This document shows, piece after piece, positions 23,998 through 29,417 of a stretch of 64,000 bases of DNA. The stretch lies in contig JBBTSB010000010.1 of NCBI GenBank assembly GCA_038064915.1, positions 19,809 to 83,808 of the forward strand, written 5' to 3'. The stretch is from Patescibacteria group bacterium (lineage in GTDB: Bacteria; Patescibacteriota; Minisyncoccia; 2-02-FULL-40-12; IGHO2-01-FULL-4-A). A program made the translations under genes and the position numbers. Every line of letters begins with the position of its first letter. Positions within the stretch are counted from its first letter, which is position 1. A model generated the notes under the pieces. That model did no database searches. It worked only from the letters and a program-made list of their open reading frames with translations, and was not told the origin of the DNA.

Positions 23998-24016
23998 TTT
24001 TGGCGACTGATATAAT
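23989..24016 (+). promoter_or_regulatory. sigma70-like promoter TTGACC-16nt-TATAAT placing the transcription start about 3 nt before ATG 24027 (near-leaderless)
   Basis: TTGACC at 23989-23994, TATAAT at 24011-24016. Confidence 0.4.
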
Positions 24017-24026
24017 TGGTCTACGT

Positions 24027-24296
24027 ATGTCACAACCTCTTACAAAAGAAGATCTCAAAGAAGCCATAGCCGGATTAGCCACGAAAAAAGATCTCGAAAG
24101 TCTTAAAGATGAGTTAAAGCTCCATATGAATGCTCGTCTAGAAGACGTAGCCACTAAAGATGATCTTCTGGCTCTCGAAACAAAATTTATCAAAGATGTT
24201 GACGCGGTAGTTGGTGTCCAGGTAAAAGATACAAAAGATTTCAAAGGTCGCGTCGAGCGACTTGAGGGCGTCGTCTTTCCAAGAAAGCACGCCTAG
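24027..24296 (+). CDS. small coiled-coil hypothetical protein
   Basis: ORF 24000..24296; ATG 24027 sits just downstream of the predicted promoter. Confidence 0.4.
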   Translation: MSQPLTKEDLKEAIAGLATKKDLESLKDELKLHMNARLEDVATKDDLLALETKFIKDVDAVVGVQVKDTKDFKGRVERLEGVVFPRKHA

Positions 24297-24414: not shown

Positions 24415-25236
24415 ATGAGCCGGCTCACCGAGGGCATTGATGGCCGCATGATTGAGGCAGCCAAAACGCTTTCCGCACAGGGCGGAACCCTGGAAGACCT
24501 CGAGGTGCTCAAGAACCCCGAGGCCAATCCCCGTGCTGTCACTGTGGCACGGGCCGTCTTGCGTGAGCTCCGTGGAGAGGTGCTCGCGCCCATTCCGCTC
24601 TCGCCGCCGCAGATCGTCCCGGGCGCCAAGAACTTCATAAACTTCGACCTCTCGGCTTTCATGGTGAGCTGGACGAAGTTCTACGGGCGGATTTTCCAGA
24701 TCACGCTCGATCCGGCTTCCGTGCTGTTGCCGCCCCTTGAGCTCGCGCTCGGGAGCGGCCTCATCCGTCATCCCGACGTCACTATCGAGAAGGTGCTCTC
24801 GGCGTGGAAGAAGAACACGCCCAAGGAGCTCCTCTACCGCTACACGGAGAGCGATCTGGACGCTGCGATTCAAAAGGAGAAGGAGTCGTGGCGCCCGAGC
24901 GGTACCTACGTCGCCTGGGCGTATCCGGCGATCGAGGCTACGGACCAGGCGCCCGAGCTCGCCGAGAAGTCCTACGAGGACATCCAGGCAATGCCCGGGG
25001 TCTGGGTCATGAACTATCCCGAGCTGCCGCTCTACGCGCTCTGGCACTACGTGGAGACCGGAGTGCCGCTAGATCAGAAGACCGTCTCGCTCTCGGACTC
25101 ACTCGATGCGGCTGGCCGCGCGCTCGGCGGCAGCTGGCACGGCGACGGGTTCTGCGTCCACTGGTGCCACCGGCGCGGCTCGCACCCGAGCATCCGCGCT
25201 CGCAGGATCGTTCTCCCGCAGCCGAAGGCTGCGTAA
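24415..25236 (+). CDS. DGR target protein (273 aa), GC-rich, with the variable region in its C-terminal ~35 residues (…GGSWHGDGFCVHWCHRRGSHPSIRARR…), C-type-lectin/FGE-like VR-fold expected
   Basis: AAGGAG SD 7 nt upstream of ATG 24415. The 3' 106 nt equal the TR except at TR-adenine positions. Confidence 0.75.
   Translation: MSRLTEGIDGRMIEAAKTLSAQGGTLEDLEVLKNPEANPRAVTVARAVLRELRGEVLAPIPLSPPQIVPGAKNFINFDLSAFMVSWTKFYGRIFQITLDPASVLLPPLELALGSGLIRHPDVTIEKVLSAWKKNTPKELLYRYTESDLDAAIQKEKESWRPSGTYVAWAYPAIEATDQAPELAEKSYEDIQAMPGVWVMNYPELPLYALWHYVETGVPLDQKTVSLSDSLDAAGRALGGSWHGDGFCVHWCHRRGSHPSIRARRIVLPQPKAA
25111..25216 (+). repeat. DGR variable region (VR)
   Basis: 106-nt alignment to 25495..25600 with 22 mismatches, every one at a template adenine; the identical 3' block CATCCGCGCTCGCAGG is IMH-like. 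Confidence 0.8.
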
Positions 25237-25265: not shown

Positions 25266-25310
25266 ACTCCGGCAGCTTGCTGCTGGAGTCCGATTTCTTT
25301 TTTGGTATAC
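25266..25310 (+). terminator. Rho-independent terminator of target gene (CGGACTCC…GGAGTCCG + TTTCTTTTTT)
   Basis: 8-bp stem plus T-run. Confidence 0.6.
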
Positions 25311-25494
25311 TTACCCCGGGCTCATACAATCGGTCTTGTTCGCCGTTTGGCGAGACGGATAGCGATTTGCCCTATCAAAGGAGAACTACGTGCCCTTTTT
25401 TGGAGAAGAAGAGCTTCCTAAAAAATCTACTGCAATGGCAGCATACTCATAATTCTTTTTGAATGATGAGCGGCAAGGATGAGATGGGGCACTT

Positions 25495-25600
25495 ACTCGA
25501 TGCGGATGGCAACGCGCTCAACAGCAACTGGAACGACGACAAGTTCTACGTCAACTGGTACAACCAGCGCAACTCGAACCCGAACATCCGCGCTCGCAGG
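25495..25600 (+). repeat. DGR template region (TR), Asn-codon (AAC) rich
   Basis: See VR. It is followed at 25606..25645 by the hairpin CAACAGGCTCCT-TCAT-AGGAGTCTGTTG plus T7. Confidence 0.8.
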
Positions 25601-25620
25601 TAGACTCCCAACAGGCTCCT

Positions 25621-25962
25621 TCATAGGAGTCTGTTGTTTTTTTGGAATGATCCGATCCAGCCATTTGTTTCTTTTGAGATTTCTTGAAGTTCTTCTTCAA
25701 ATGCTTGATATAGACTTAGTCCGATAATATCCAGTTCTTGCATGAGCCGTACCATGCGTTTTAGTATTTCTATATTGGTGCGTAGGTCTTTCAGTGTAGG
25801 GACCTTTTCAATACCAGTTTGAAATCGTGCCTTGATCGCAAGTGCAATTGCATCCAATATAAGCGCATCAAGTTTTGAATAAATTCCGTGCCGATCCTGC
25901 TTTGATATTTTCGTGCGGAGGCGATAAAATTTCTTGTAAAACTCAAACAAATGATAAATCAA
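25621..25962 (-). CDS. avd: accessory variability determinant (Avd)-like four-helix-bundle protein, opposite strand to TR/RT
   Basis: 113 aa, basic. The C-terminal …LQEISKETNGWIGSF and central …RHGIYSKLDALILDAIA… segments resemble the Avd / 23S-IVS four-helix-bundle family. TTG start. Confidence 0.55.
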   Translation of the reverse strand: MIYHLFEFYKKFYRLRTKISKQDRHGIYSKLDALILDAIALAIKARFQTGIEKVPTLKDLRTNIEILKRMVRLMQELDIIGLSLYQAFEEELQEISKETNGWIGSFQKNNRLL

Positions 25963-25963
25963 G

Positions 25964-26914
25964 GTGACAGGTCGTTGGGGGGGGGGTCGCTATAGGAGTA
26001 TTCATGATTTGGCAAATTTATTTCTCGCCTGGCGGGAATTCCGGCGCGGCAAGCGACAGAAACCGGATGTTCAAGCATTTGAGTTTGATCTGGAGGATAA
26101 CCTATTTGAGCTTCACGAGCAACTCGTATCAAAAACATATTCGCACCAGCCGTACGAATCATTTTTTGTAACAGATCCAAAGCTTCGACATATCCATAAG
26201 GCCACCGTGCGAGATCGCGTCTTGCACCAGGCGGTGTTCCATGTGCTCTATCCGATCTTTGATCATACATTTATCTACGACTCCTATTCCTGTCGCATTG
26301 GCAAAGGGACTCACATTGCCGTTAATCGTCTCAAAGAATTTTGCCGCAAAGCTAGTTGCAACAATTCACGAAACATCTTCGCTCTCAAATGCGATATCCG
26401 CAAGTTCTTCGATTCGGTAGATCATGAAATTTTGATTGATTTGATAAAGCAGAGCGTTGTTGATCCCGATGTGCTTTGGCTCATAAAATTGATTCTCGAT
26501 AGTTTTCCCAAGGGCCTACCTTTGGGCAACGTCACGAGTCAATTATTTGCAAATATCTATTTGAATGAGCTTGATCAGTTTGCTAAGCATACGCTCAAGG
26601 CAAAGTATTACCTGCGCTACTGCGATGATTTTGTGTTACTCAACCCAGATCAGTCGACCCTTCTAGTAATTCGCAATTTTTTAGAGAATAACCTCAAACT
26701 GCAGCTTCATCCCAACAAAATCATCCTTCGTACCTACCGCCAGGGGATTGATTTTCTCGGCTACGTCGTGCGGCCGTACTGTCGAACCTTGCGGACGAAG
26801 ACAAAGAAGCGAATTTTTAAGAATATTTCAGAGAAAAATCTCGCATCGTACCTTGGTGTTCTCGATCATTGCGACGGATATGCCATTCGCCAAAAGCTCT
26901 TTGATTTGGTATGA
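25964..26914 (+). CDS. DGR reverse transcriptase
   Basis: RT motifs including LPLGNVTSQLFANIYL (DGR-type IGxxxSQ) and YCDDFVLL (YxDD). N-terminus alignable to Bordetella Brt. GTG start; G10 tract at 25977-25986. Confidence 0.85.
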   Translation: MTGRWGGGRYRSIHDLANLFLAWREFRRGKRQKPDVQAFEFDLEDNLFELHEQLVSKTYSHQPYESFFVTDPKLRHIHKATVRDRVLHQAVFHVLYPIFDHTFIYDSYSCRIGKGTHIAVNRLKEFCRKASCNNSRNIFALKCDIRKFFDSVDHEILIDLIKQSVVDPDVLWLIKLILDSFPKGLPLGNVTSQLFANIYLNELDQFAKHTLKAKYYLRYCDDFVLLNPDQSTLLVIRNFLENNLKLQLHPNKIILRTYRQGIDFLGYVVRPYCRTLRTKTKKRIFKNISEKNLASYLGVLDHCDGYAIRQKLFDLV

Positions 26915-26921
26915 TTTTTCC

Positions 26922-27629
26922 ATGTATCTTTCTGTCATTATTCCCGCTTACAACGAAGAAAAACGCATCGGCAAGACGCTCGAAGCAATTCGAGAATATT
27001 TGAGCGAGCAAAGTTATGAGTGGGAAGTCATTGTAGTAAATAATAATTCAAATGATGCTACAAGCGAAATTGCAGAAAAATATCAGGTTCACGTCATTGA
27101 CGAAAAGCGACCAGGAAAAGGATATGCAGTCACGACCGGAATGCTTGAGGCAAAGGGTGATCTCCGACTTTTCACTGATGCTGATAATTCAACGAGCATT
27201 GATCATCTTGACCTCATGATTCCGTATATGCAAAATTACGATGTGGCGATTGGCTCTCTTGCAGTACCTGGAGCGAAGGTTGTGCAGGGAGGCGAAGAGC
27301 CATGGTATCGTGTTATCATGGGTAAGCTGGGCAATAAATGGATTCAGCTATTCGCGGTATGGGGGATCCATGACACGCAACGTGGATTCAAGTTATTTAA
27401 GGCGCAAGCCGTAGAAAAGATCTTTCCCAAGCTCACAATCTTTGGCTGGGGATTTGATGTAGAAGTTTTGGCTTTAGCACGCAAGTTTGGTTTTACCATA
27501 AAAGAAATACCTGTCACGTGGGACAACGATCCCAATTCCAAAGTAACCGTTTGGGCATATCCGCAAGTACTTTTGCAAACACTTAACGTGAGATGGAACC
27601 TGTTAACGAATAAATATGGATCCCGTTAG
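26922..27629 (+). CDS. GT2 family glycosyltransferase (DPM1/polyprenyl-phosphate sugar synthase-like)
   Basis: MYLSVIIPAYNEEKRIG… DxD context; start at ATG 26922, 8 nt after the RT stop. Confidence 0.8.
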   Translation: MYLSVIIPAYNEEKRIGKTLEAIREYLSEQSYEWEVIVVNNNSNDATSEIAEKYQVHVIDEKRPGKGYAVTTGMLEAKGDLRLFTDADNSTSIDHLDLMIPYMQNYDVAIGSLAVPGAKVVQGGEEPWYRVIMGKLGNKWIQLFAVWGIHDTQRGFKLFKAQAVEKIFPKLTIFGWGFDVEVLALARKFGFTIKEIPVTWDNDPNSKVTVWAYPQVLLQTLNVRWNLLTNKYGSR

Positions 27630-27697
27630 AAGCAGCCCTAACGGGTTATAATCTACGCTAAACTATTACTATGACTTATACTGCTTCTAACGGGATG
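27619..27697 (+). promoter_or_regulatory. conserved cis element copy A: hairpin CCCGTTAGAAG…CTAACGGG plus distal CTTCTAACGGG abutting the galT ATG
   Basis: A near-identical arrangement is found at 61382..61462. Confidence 0.5.
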
Positions 27698-28687
27698 GAA
27701 AGTGAATTTAGAAGAGAAATCGTTTCCGGAGATTGGGTATTGATCGCGGCGGGACGAGGAATGCGTCCGCACGCGGTAAAGCCGCGCGAGAGCAATTATC
27801 AAAGTCCCGCTGACTGTCCCTTTGAAGACCCTCAAAAATCAGGCAACAGTGAAGCAGTCATGGTTGTTCCCGAGGGGTCAAACGAGTGGCGCATCCAGGT
27901 CGTCAAAAACAAATATCCTGCCGTTGTGCCGGGAGCGTGCGGGCCGATTATGGAGCGAGAAGGATTTGAAGTTACCGCAGGAGTGGGATTCCATGAAATT
28001 ATCGTCATGCGCGACCACGACAAATTTTTTCCTTCGTTTTCACCGGAGGAGACAGCTCAAGTTCTGCAAGTGTATCGCGATCGCTACCGCCAGATTGCTC
28101 TCGAGCCTTGCGGTCAGTACATTATGATTTTTCACAACTATGGTCATCGCGGCGGAGCCAGTGTGTACCACCCACATTCACAAATCATTTCCGTGCCGAT
28201 CATTCCTCCTGATGTCATGCGAAGCGTCAAGGGATCTTATGATTACTTTAAAAAAAACGGACGTGAAGCACATGCCGTTATGGTGGAGTATGAACTTGCG
28301 AACAAAAAACGGATTCTCTTTGAAAATGAGCAGTTTGTAGCCTTTTGTCCCTTCGTTTCCAAACAGCCCTACGAAATGCGCATCTATCCAAAATTTTCCA
28401 GTGCACATTTTGATCACATAGAAGATCAGAGCCTTGTGCCGCTAGGCGAGGCTCTGAACACGGTACTCAAAAAAATGCGTGACGCTCTTGATGATCCGGC
28501 ATATAACTTTTTCATCCATACGGCGCCGCTTCACTTTGAACACTCAGATCTTTCCTTTGACCAGTACTATCGATGGCACATAGAAGTCATTCCACGTGTG
28601 AGCTTTGATGCCGGGTTTGAGGCAGGGACGGGAATTAAAATAAATATTATAGATCCGGATGTTGCCGCGCAAACGCTCAATGGGTAA
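27695..28687 (+). CDS. galT: galactose-1-phosphate uridylyltransferase (HIT family)
   Basis: HPHSQI HxHxQ motif and Zn-binding Cys/His N-terminus. ORF track start is 27671; ATG 27695 is preferred by analogy with element copy B. Confidence 0.8.
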   Translation: MESEFRREIVSGDWVLIAAGRGMRPHAVKPRESNYQSPADCPFEDPQKSGNSEAVMVVPEGSNEWRIQVVKNKYPAVVPGACGPIMEREGFEVTAGVGFHEIIVMRDHDKFFPSFSPEETAQVLQVYRDRYRQIALEPCGQYIMIFHNYGHRGGASVYHPHSQIISVPIIPPDVMRSVKGSYDYFKKNGREAHAVMVEYELANKKRILFENEQFVAFCPFVSKQPYEMRIYPKFSSAHFDHIEDQSLVPLGEALNTVLKKMRDALDDPAYNFFIHTAPLHFEHSDLSFDQYYRWHIEVIPRVSFDAGFEAGTGIKINIIDPDVAAQTLNG

Positions 28688-29417
28688 AATTCTCATCGCC
28701 AATTGGAAAGCCAATCCCGCAACGCTACAAGATGCAGAGCATTTATTTCATGCCGAAATGAAGGCGACGAAGAAATTTCCTCAGGTAACCGTGGTGATCT
28801 GTCCGCCATTTGTGTACCTCGCACGCTATGCAAGTCATGCTGCGGTGGAACTCGGAGCTCAGGACGTGCACTGGGAAGATCGTGGTCCTCATACTGGTGA
28901 GGTGTCGCCGCTGATGCTCAAGGAACTTGGCGTAAGGTTTGTCCTCGTGGGACACTCTGAAAGGCGTGCTCTCGGGGAAACAGATGAAATGGTCAATAAA
29001 AAACTGAAGGCAGTTTTGCAGAATGGCATGATACCGGTGCTTTTGATCGGTGAGCCCGAAAAAGGCCCTGCGCGTTCGGACTACCTTATAGATCAGCTTA
29101 CCCGCGATTTGGAAGGTATTGATGCTGATGGCGCGAAAAAGATTTTGTTTACCTATGAGCCGGTTTGGGCGATTAGTACCAATCCTGGCGCGCAACCGGC
29201 TACTCCCGAAGATGCTTTATCCGCGATTCACGAGATGCAGGCGATTATCAGTAAAATGTACGGATTTGCTCCCGAAGTACTTTACGGCGGGAGCGCGAAT
29301 GTTGAAAACATCGCGGGCTTTCTTTCCCATCCGGAAATTTGCGGGGCGGTGGTTGGCGGCGCCAGCCTTCATGCAGATGAGTTTGGGAGAATGATTGATA
29401 TTGTGGCGCAATTATGA
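28680..29417 (+). CDS. tpiA: triosephosphate isomerase
   Basis: ANWKAN…VGHSERR…YEPVWAI motifs; ATG 28680 overlaps the galT stop. Confidence 0.9.
   Translation: MGKILIANWKANPATLQDAEHLFHAEMKATKKFPQVTVVICPPFVYLARYASHAAVELGAQDVHWEDRGPHTGEVSPLMLKELGVRFVLVGHSERRALGETDEMVNKKLKAVLQNGMIPVLLIGEPEKGPARSDYLIDQLTRDLEGIDADGAKKILFTYEPVWAISTNPGAQPATPEDALSAIHEMQAIISKMYGFAPEVLYGGSANVENIAGFLSHPEICGAVVGGASLHADEFGRMIDIVAQL

Follow-up and report, generated by a model that had tools for sequence, protein, structure and literature searches.

The locus described here raises the question of whether the activity of a diversity-generating retroelement (DGR) can be switched by a homopolymer lying within its own genes. 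The stretch analysed, hereafter called the window, is 64 kb of Patescibacteria DNA (contig JBBTSB010000010.1), and it contains an uninterrupted run of ten G in the 5' coding end of a DGR reverse transcriptase (RT) gene. DGRs are especially abundant in the small-genome bacteria of the candidate phyla radiation (CPR), and to our knowledge the control of their activity in natural hosts is largely unknown. Across related genomes the run was conserved in position and variable in length. We consider it fairly probable that this hypermutable tract is a contingency switch that gates RT together with an extended form of Avd, making mutagenic homing phase-variable.

The locus is a complete, bona fide DGR, with a target gene carrying a variable repeat (VR), a template repeat (TR), avd on the minus strand and the RT gene on the plus strand (Table 1). 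As expected of a DGR, the 3' end of the target gene carries VR, which differs from TR only at TR adenines (21 mismatches: 15 A>G, 6 A>C and no A>T). The RT open reading frame (ORF) matched RVT_1 (E=7.5e-19), and its best solved relative was the Bordetella DGR RT (bRT, 8ub7_A, E=3.1e-37). The translation contains LGNVTSQ; the motif (I/L/V)GxxxSQ defines the DGR-type RT family. The avd product scored 42.0 bits against PF22296 bAvd, for which the cut-off is 40, and 43.9 bits (E=2.4e-11) against NCBIfam DivGenRetAVD, below the cut-off of 80 for that model. Called from TTG 25962, Avd spans positions 9–106 of the bAvd profile, which has 107. This start and the one called for RT (GTG 25964) are divergent and only two bases apart.

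The ten G were read directly from the sequence, and they lie inside the 5' coding end of the RT ORF, as the first-pass annotation of this DNA had claimed. Two details of that annotation were corrected. The ORF starts at GTG 25964 rather than at an ATG, and the run, which had been equated with codons 5–8, does lie there but takes up only the last two bases of codon 5 through the first two of codon 8 (TGG GGG GGG GGT). This GTG-initiated reading (MTGRWGGG) was specific to the window's assembly. No other run of G or C longer than 7 occurs in the 64 kb; the remaining long runs are four G6 and one C7. Under a model of independent, identically distributed bases, a window of this length and composition (48% G+C) is expected to hold 0.04 G runs of at least 10.

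Tract length differed between otherwise near-identical genomes in three species, all lengths being those of assembly consensus sequences and not of reads. A second assembly of the window's organism (L088, GCA_964360345.1) aligned with the window over 5708 nt with 0 mismatches and one gap, which was the tract itself: G10 in the window and G11 in L088. The T7, A8 and A7 runs within the same 5708 nt were unchanged. In the P0020 species, the tract was G9, G10 or G5 between identical flanks, with the G5 contig at 1x coverage. In a Candidatus Azambacteria species, most contigs carried G11, LCAF01000001.1 carried G12 and two contigs carried G10, with almost no other differences; a metagenome pattern scan for Azambacteria tract lengths returned only two loci, G11 and G12. 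Gene calls shifted with tract length. Within Azambacteria the called RT was 378, 330 or 332 amino acids (aa) long and the called avd product 74–126 aa, and in L088 the corresponding calls were 235 and 180 aa. The only other indel among the near-identical Azambacteria contigs was in avd (metagenome contig L090 at ~955, relative to L089), where the loss of one base from a short T run cut the called Avd to 74 aa.

Related loci were collected in a scan of one genome per species. This yielded 80 loci with 48–66% RT identity, nearly all labelled as Patescibacteria/CPR-type lineages, with a few third-party metagenome-assembled genome records labelled otherwise. A pure poly-G run of at least 7 was found at the same avd/RT junction in 62 of these 80 species-level relatives. 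Lengths ranged from G7 to G15 with a mode of 9–10 (two loci at 7, seven at 8, 17 at 9, 20 at 10, nine at 11, five at 12, and one each at 13 and 15), and in the 62 tract-bearing loci the run ended 31–76 nt before the conserved RT core. G/C runs of at least 7 were otherwise rare, with 63 of the 69 such runs in 490 kb of these loci located at the avd/RT junction. The G was always on the RT-sense strand, and the run remained pure across deep divergence. On an approximate neighbor-joining tree of RT, the tract was present in all major clades; tract-less loci formed one clade, in which the RT and avd start codons abut in CATG, or occurred as singletons nested among tract-bearing relatives. Because the lengths were not multiples of three, the run is not simply a Gly3 motif. 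These patterns support the view that the tract is not a chance feature and behaves as a hypermutable element tied to the DGR machinery. The first-pass annotation had named a fixed tract length and homologs lacking the run as the outcomes that would count against its proposal, and had suggested that orthologous DGR RTs be compared for presence and length of the tract. In that comparison 62 of 80 carried the run, and assemblies at G10 and at G11 showed that its length was not fixed.

One relative departs from the homopolymer. In L045 (CAYMIK010000009.1, 2896–2931), a (CT)~18 repeat followed by GGAGGG takes the place of the run at the avd/RT junction, and two ORFs run through it, the RT-frame ORF as (SL)n and a 146-aa avd ORF as (RE)n. 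This site can thus hold another type of slippery repeat. Assemblies also tended to break at the site. L095 had a scaffold N-gap immediately upstream of the tract (~914–923), and the L041 contig ended in a 25-G run at the tract position (1–25). Two RT homologs of ~62% identity, P0065 (483 aa) and P0081 (512 aa), carried an extra PF03167 (uracil-DNA glycosylase superfamily) domain, to be explained by gene fusion or by read-through into the gene next to it.

The involvement of avd had been missed at first pass. RT and avd overlap head to head at their 5' ends, in the same codon register, and the divergent avd, too, has the tract within its 5' extension, so that a single run can gate both proteins. 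We designated as group A those loci that, like the window, have the tract no more than 53 nt before the RT core. In group A, a plus-strand ATG is conserved 22–39 nt upstream of the tract; the same three bases, read on the other strand, are the His codon of the avd N-terminal I-V-H motif. On the minus strand, a second conserved ATG, a few codons past the tract, is in the same way the reverse complement of a His codon conserved in RT. In the window these are ATG 25951 (+), whose extension resembles the N-terminus of P0015 (MNQGD..GGG), and ATG 26005 (−). Because each ATG sits in the opposite gene's His codon, each extension is in frame only when the avd and RT registers coincide across the tract, which is then read as GGG (Gly) in RT and as CCC (Pro) in Avd.

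Both extensions were free of stops. The RT-side ATG frame had 0 stops in 374 codons, in 36 of 36 loci, against 7.6–8.9% stops in the other two frames, and the avd-side ATG frame had 0 in 195 codons, in all loci, against 12–17% (maximum 16.5%) in the others. We also counted codons whose reverse complement is a stop (TTA, CTA and TCA) between the tract and the His codon. None was present among 159 codons of the RT overlap, compared with 4.5% in the rest of the gene (P=7e-4), and none among 338 codons of the avd overlap, compared with 6.8% elsewhere (P=4e-11). Both extensions look dual-coding and under coding constraint, whatever the current tract length. Six tract-less relatives share this architecture (L019, L024, L047, L054, L078, L080); the upstream ATG was in frame in 6/6, and the glycines were written with mixed codons or in some other way, for example GGA GGT GGC in L024 and GGA GGC in L047. 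Among tract-bearing group-A loci, 8 of 34 were in register, with offsets 0, 1 and 2 occurring in 8, 18 and 8 loci. Many relatives rely on the upstream reading frame for RT: in thirteen tract-bearing group-A loci, no canonical start lies in frame from which the conserved N-terminus of RT would be retained. The closest relative, L106 (75% RT identity), is in register with G9 and lacks any canonical start past the tract, so the TTG at 26009 in the window is not a conserved start. A TTG abutting the tract was considered as a conserved start and rejected, being in frame in only 8 of the 19 loci that have it, no better than chance.

Translation in the window depends on tract length, with G9 or G12 in register and G10 and G11 out of register. 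At G9/G12, ATG 25951 (+) would give full RT (MINQGDRSLGGGRYRSIHDLANLF..., 320/321 aa), and ATG 26005 (−) would give Avd with its extension (MNTPIATPPQRPVTLIYHLFEF..., 127/128 aa). At G10, the state of the window, the same two starts lead to 14 aa, ending at TAG 25993–25995, and to 20 aa; the AGGAG that follows the tract overlaps this TAG. At G11, as in the sister assembly L088, the plus-strand product is 73 aa, out of frame, fused to the +1-frame ORF 26004–26171 and crossing TTG 26009, and the minus-strand product is 15 aa. Only GTG 25964 and TTG 26009 remain in frame for RT at G10. The latter is a possible tract-independent internal start; in bRT, 14 residues lie N-terminal to the position where the TTG-26009 protein would begin. 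A Pfam search gave no family match for the +1-frame ORF. The sole plus-strand sigma-70-like match near RT (25902–25930) places a putative transcription start at ~25937 by consensus match only, and ATG 25951 would then be the first AUG. The same scan found no match on the minus strand near the tract.

These outcomes change much of what the first-pass annotation had said about expression. It had treated G10 as the "on" frame; the conserved start ATG 25951 is in frame only at G9/G12 and yields a 14-aa peptide at G10. Its statement that no in-frame ATG follows the tract holds, but an in-frame TTG at 26009 lies 10 nt after AGGAG and is the start annotated at NCBI. With this TTG and its AGGAG after the tract, RT is not necessarily off in the other states, and a change of one G would not necessarily silence it, as had been supposed. 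AGGAG was found as described, and the out-of-frame ATG after it is at 26004, not 26005. This ATG comes after the tract and so keeps one frame relative to RT whatever the tract length; the rearrangement that had been expected at G9 or G11 comes down to the +1 ORF being joined to ATG 25951, which happens only at G8 or G11.

Since the tract is kept in most relatives and its length shifts between near-identical assemblies, it probably serves the DGR itself as a stochastic switch, of the on/off or the dimmer type. We propose that, in register, ribosomes starting at ATG 25951 would read the tract as Gly-Gly-Gly into the RT body, and those starting at ATG 26005 (−) would read it as Pro-Pro-Pro into Avd. 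One G gained or lost, most simply through slipped-strand mispairing at replication, would put both extensions out of frame at once, and RT would then be made only from weak or internal starts, GTG 25964 (at G10) or TTG 26009. RT amount and Avd form would consequently vary among cells, stochastically and heritably, and mutagenic retrohoming would itself be phase-variable. We infer slippage, its reversibility, the start codons used, and the effect on RT and Avd levels and on homing from the conservation of the tract, its length polymorphism, the overlapping stop-free extensions and the in-frame tract-less relatives. The slippage switch suggested at first pass is partly supported by comparison of genomes, the tract being conserved in 62 of 80 relatives and differing in length in three species. 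A more specific version, to which we give a little less than even weight, holds that in a large clade of Patescibacteria DGRs a selected poly-G/poly-C tract serves as a single bidirectional contingency switch, toggling full-length RT and Avd together, with hypermutation phase-variable and the switch held off in most consensus genomes.

Several observations weigh against a contingency switch. Length differences between assemblies could partly be homopolymer miscalls or assembler choices, and L088 may derive from read sets overlapping those of the window's assembly. VR (compared over 25097–25206) is identical between the window and L088 although these assemblies differ in tract length, and their consensus sequences give no sign of ongoing VR diversification. 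The in-register state is not enriched (8/34 tract-bearing loci), and loci at the +1 offset are in excess (18/34), a pattern not expected of a simple on/off switch; the excess could stem from biased mutation, from the direction of slippage or from selection that favours a single off state. In the window, TTG 26009 with AGGAG could make RT independently of the tract, and the bAvd domain from TTG 25962 is essentially complete (9–106 of 107). Given such an internal RT start and a near-complete Avd, the effect may be modulation and not on/off. Group-B relatives have the RT ATG after the tract, so a single mechanism does not cover the whole clade.

Two other functions for the tract would leave it a part of gene expression. 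Constitutive recoding, in which the tract is normally out of frame and slipping transcripts or ribosomes give a low, fixed dose of RT and of extended Avd instead of a heritable switch, would fit the 26 of 34 consensus genomes that are out of register and their bias to one extra base (18/34). The stop-free extensions indicate that the in-register product matters, which this model shares. RNA polymerase tends to slip on runs of 9–12 identical bases, and on such runs a tRNA can re-pair perfectly whatever the frame. That knowledge comes from A/T runs in insertion sequence (IS) elements and dnaX, and efficient slippage is documented mainly for such runs. Moreover, conserved recoding sites keep one fixed frame offset, whereas all three occur here (8/18/8 of 34 loci); DNA length itself differs within species, and tract-less relatives are simply in frame. 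We regard recoding as unlikely. A non-coding role, with the tract as promoter spacer, leader or Shine-Dalgarno-like element or protein-binding site whose length tunes transcription or initiation and the frames secondary, we rate slightly lower still. It draws its strength from group B, where the RT ATG follows the tract by 13–19 nt. In six group-B loci (L028, L043, L056, L065, L072, L075), the tract sits in a 16–18 nt spacer between a −35-like TGGCAA/TTGCAA and a −10-like TAGACT/TAGAAT/TAGTAT (consensus matches), with an in-frame RT ATG 7–10 nt later. This layout resembles the promoter-spacer tracts of porA, fim and hif and looks like a leaderless-mRNA promoter with spacing set by the tract, so in that sub-clade the tract may act on transcription. 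Such promoter matches are consensus matches only, and a non-coding role leaves the absence of antisense stops in both extensions unexplained. For the window itself, a promoter-spacer tract of the porA/fim/hif type was rejected, the sole sigma-70-like match lying upstream of the tract, which is not between its hexamers.

A structural RNA or DNA element used for RT–Avd binding, priming or homing, analogous to the Bordetella priming spacer region, seems very improbable. DGR reverse transcription depends on RNA downstream of TR, and structures of this machinery are known (8ub7–8ube); the constant G strand and the purity of the run over deep divergence would also suit a structural role, but strand orientation is accounted for by common descent. 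The tract lies ~375 nt downstream of TR, past the terminator-like hairpin with T7 and separated by the antisense of avd, and as part of the TR RNA or of a spacer-like region it was rejected on these grounds. A structured RNA around the tract was likewise set aside: the fold of 25937–26050 was no better than that of shuffled sequences (minimum free energy z=+0.23), and an Rfam search gave no match near the tract. Lengths from 7 to 15 that differ within species, and tract-less relatives with apparently intact DGR genes, also argue against structure. Least credible of all is the absence of any function, the run being a sequencing or assembly artefact or three to four Gly codons that happen to be GGG. 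Poly-G is a known product of two-colour Illumina chemistry, and the L041 run at a contig end and the L095 scaffold gap beside the run would fit an artefact. A run found at one and the same internal site in 62 genomes, which come from many different years and studies, would not, nor would lengths that are not multiples of three, glycines encoded by mixed codons in relatives and the near absence of other G/C runs.

The contingency switch has close counterparts in known systems. At the level of sequence, the tract has the features of a contingency locus, namely a G/C run of at least ~7 (G10 in the window, G7–G15 in relatives), length differences between otherwise near-identical genomes in three species (consensus sequences), and a position within stop-free, ATG-initiated RT and avd extensions whose starts are presumed to be used. 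Poly-G/poly-C loci of Campylobacter jejuni, Neisseria and Haemophilus share with it a pure run of ~7–13 nt near the 5' end of a frame, length differences among near-identical genomes, frame changes caused by one base and a scarcity of G/C runs elsewhere. Those tracts gate surface or restriction-modification genes in host-associated pathogens, whereas the genes here encode RT and Avd and belong to a mutagenic retroelement of groundwater Patescibacteria, and one tract is placed in two antisense overlapping frames. In Haemophilus influenzae hifA/hifB, van Ham et al. reportedly described in 1993 a (TA)n repeat in overlapping divergent promoters. There, as proposed here, a single simple repeat between divergent genes controls both; the hif repeat acts on promoter spacing and thus on transcription, whereas the tract of the window lies in overlapping coding extensions and would act on the translation frame, a hif-like promoter-spacer arrangement being confined to a sub-clade of relatives. 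Phasevarions, in which a simple repeat switches a DNA methyltransferase gene, are likewise second-order generators of diversity in a population. Their outcome is epigenetic regulation, whereas the switch proposed here would act on targeted hypermutation of the ligand-binding region of a single protein. Programmed slippage in IS elements and Thermus dnaX also uses a long homopolymer between two frames of one protein, with a minority of slipped products restoring the full-length protein, but those recoding sites have a fixed offset and A/T runs, in contrast to the occurrence of all offsets and the variable DNA length seen here. The DGR of Bordetella phage BPP-1 (PDB 8ub7 series) has a homologous RT (E=3e-37), Avd and adenine-specific TR/VR differences, and the segment of its RT before W15 corresponds to that encoded around the tract. 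In BPP-1, avd, TR and brt are co-oriented, whereas in the window avd runs the other way, forms a head-to-head overlap with RT and bears the tract; we know of no homopolymer or overlap described for BPP-1.

A promoter-like site and a strong terminator-like hairpin bracket TR, which suggests a discrete TR RNA of ~300 nt; this RNA probably stops well short of the tract. The hairpin also covers part of avd, at its 3' end on the opposite strand, and may terminate both. DGRs often carry a hairpin or cruciform beside VR, and a near-perfect inverted repeat 26 nt past the stop of the VR-bearing gene is a candidate hairpin/cruciform or terminator. The target gene had no Pfam or NCBIfam match, and no additional VR copies were found in a search of the window. 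Directly upstream of the target gene, a 98-aa ORF at 24000–24296 gave a weak LED-repeat match (E=0.006), far below the cut-off. Downstream, RT is followed by a family-2 glycosyltransferase gene and then by a galactose-1-phosphate uridylyltransferase-like gene, an order common to the window (26748–29417) and Azambacteria loci L101–L105. The DGR appears to occupy a conserved chromosomal position rather than an obvious mobile element.

Table 1. Features of the DGR locus and of the avd/RT junction in the window (positions counted from the first base of the window).
Feature	Position	Strand	Basis or remark
DGR target gene, 293 aa	24355..25236	+	ORF listing
Variable repeat (VR), 3' end of target gene	25101..25206	+	repeat search, alignment
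Near-perfect inverted repeat, 15-nt arms (93%), 2-nt loop	25262..25293	.	repeat search
Promoter-like site upstream of TR, TTGGTA-17-TACAAT	25302..25330	+	consensus match only
Template repeat (TR)	25495..25600	+	repeat family D1, alignment
Terminator-like hairpin (12 pairs) and T7 directly after TR	25609..25645	+	overlaps avd 3' end
avd, called from TTG 25962	25621..25962	-	PF22296 bAvd
Sigma-70-like promoter match TTGATA-17-TAAAAT, inside avd 5' end	25902..25930	+	consensus scan, 10/12
Upstream ATG and RT N-terminal extension (MINQGDRSL...)	25951..25976	+	in RT frame only at G9/G12
RT ORF open at G10, GTG start	25964..26914	+	ORF listing; conserved core from ~26009
G10 homopolymer, variable tract (C10 on avd strand)	25977..25986	+	direct read
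Upstream ATG (26005-26003) and avd extension (MNTPIAT-PPP...)	25987..26005	-	in avd frame only at C9/C12
AGGAG	25994..25998	+	10 nt before TTG 26009, 5 nt before out-of-frame ATG 26004
+1-frame ORF, 55 aa	26004..26171	+	ORF listing
RT as annotated at NCBI, TTG start, 301 aa	26009..26914	+	P0001 100% identical, starts MANLFLAW

The first-pass annotation had called such control a novel regulatory layer. In the literature searched, whose scope did not take in Paul et al. (2017) on CPR DGRs, no paper joined DGRs with homopolymers, poly-G, phase variation or contingency loci, and neither Wu (2018) nor Roux (2021) mentions a DGR poly-G tract. What appears to be new here is the place of the proposed simple-repeat switch, in a hypermutation device and within the 5' ends at which its RT and avd genes overlap in antisense.

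The arrangement is itself unusual: the starts of two divergent genes overlap across one homopolymer common to both, and the genes are in the same codon register. It also affects annotation, since the starts called for RT and avd in these genomes change with the length of the tract and come out truncated, extended or inconsistent. If the contingency switch is real, its stochastic action would explain how cells confine risky mutagenesis to a subpopulation, and cells would gain a second layer of bet-hedging beyond the diversification of the protein itself.

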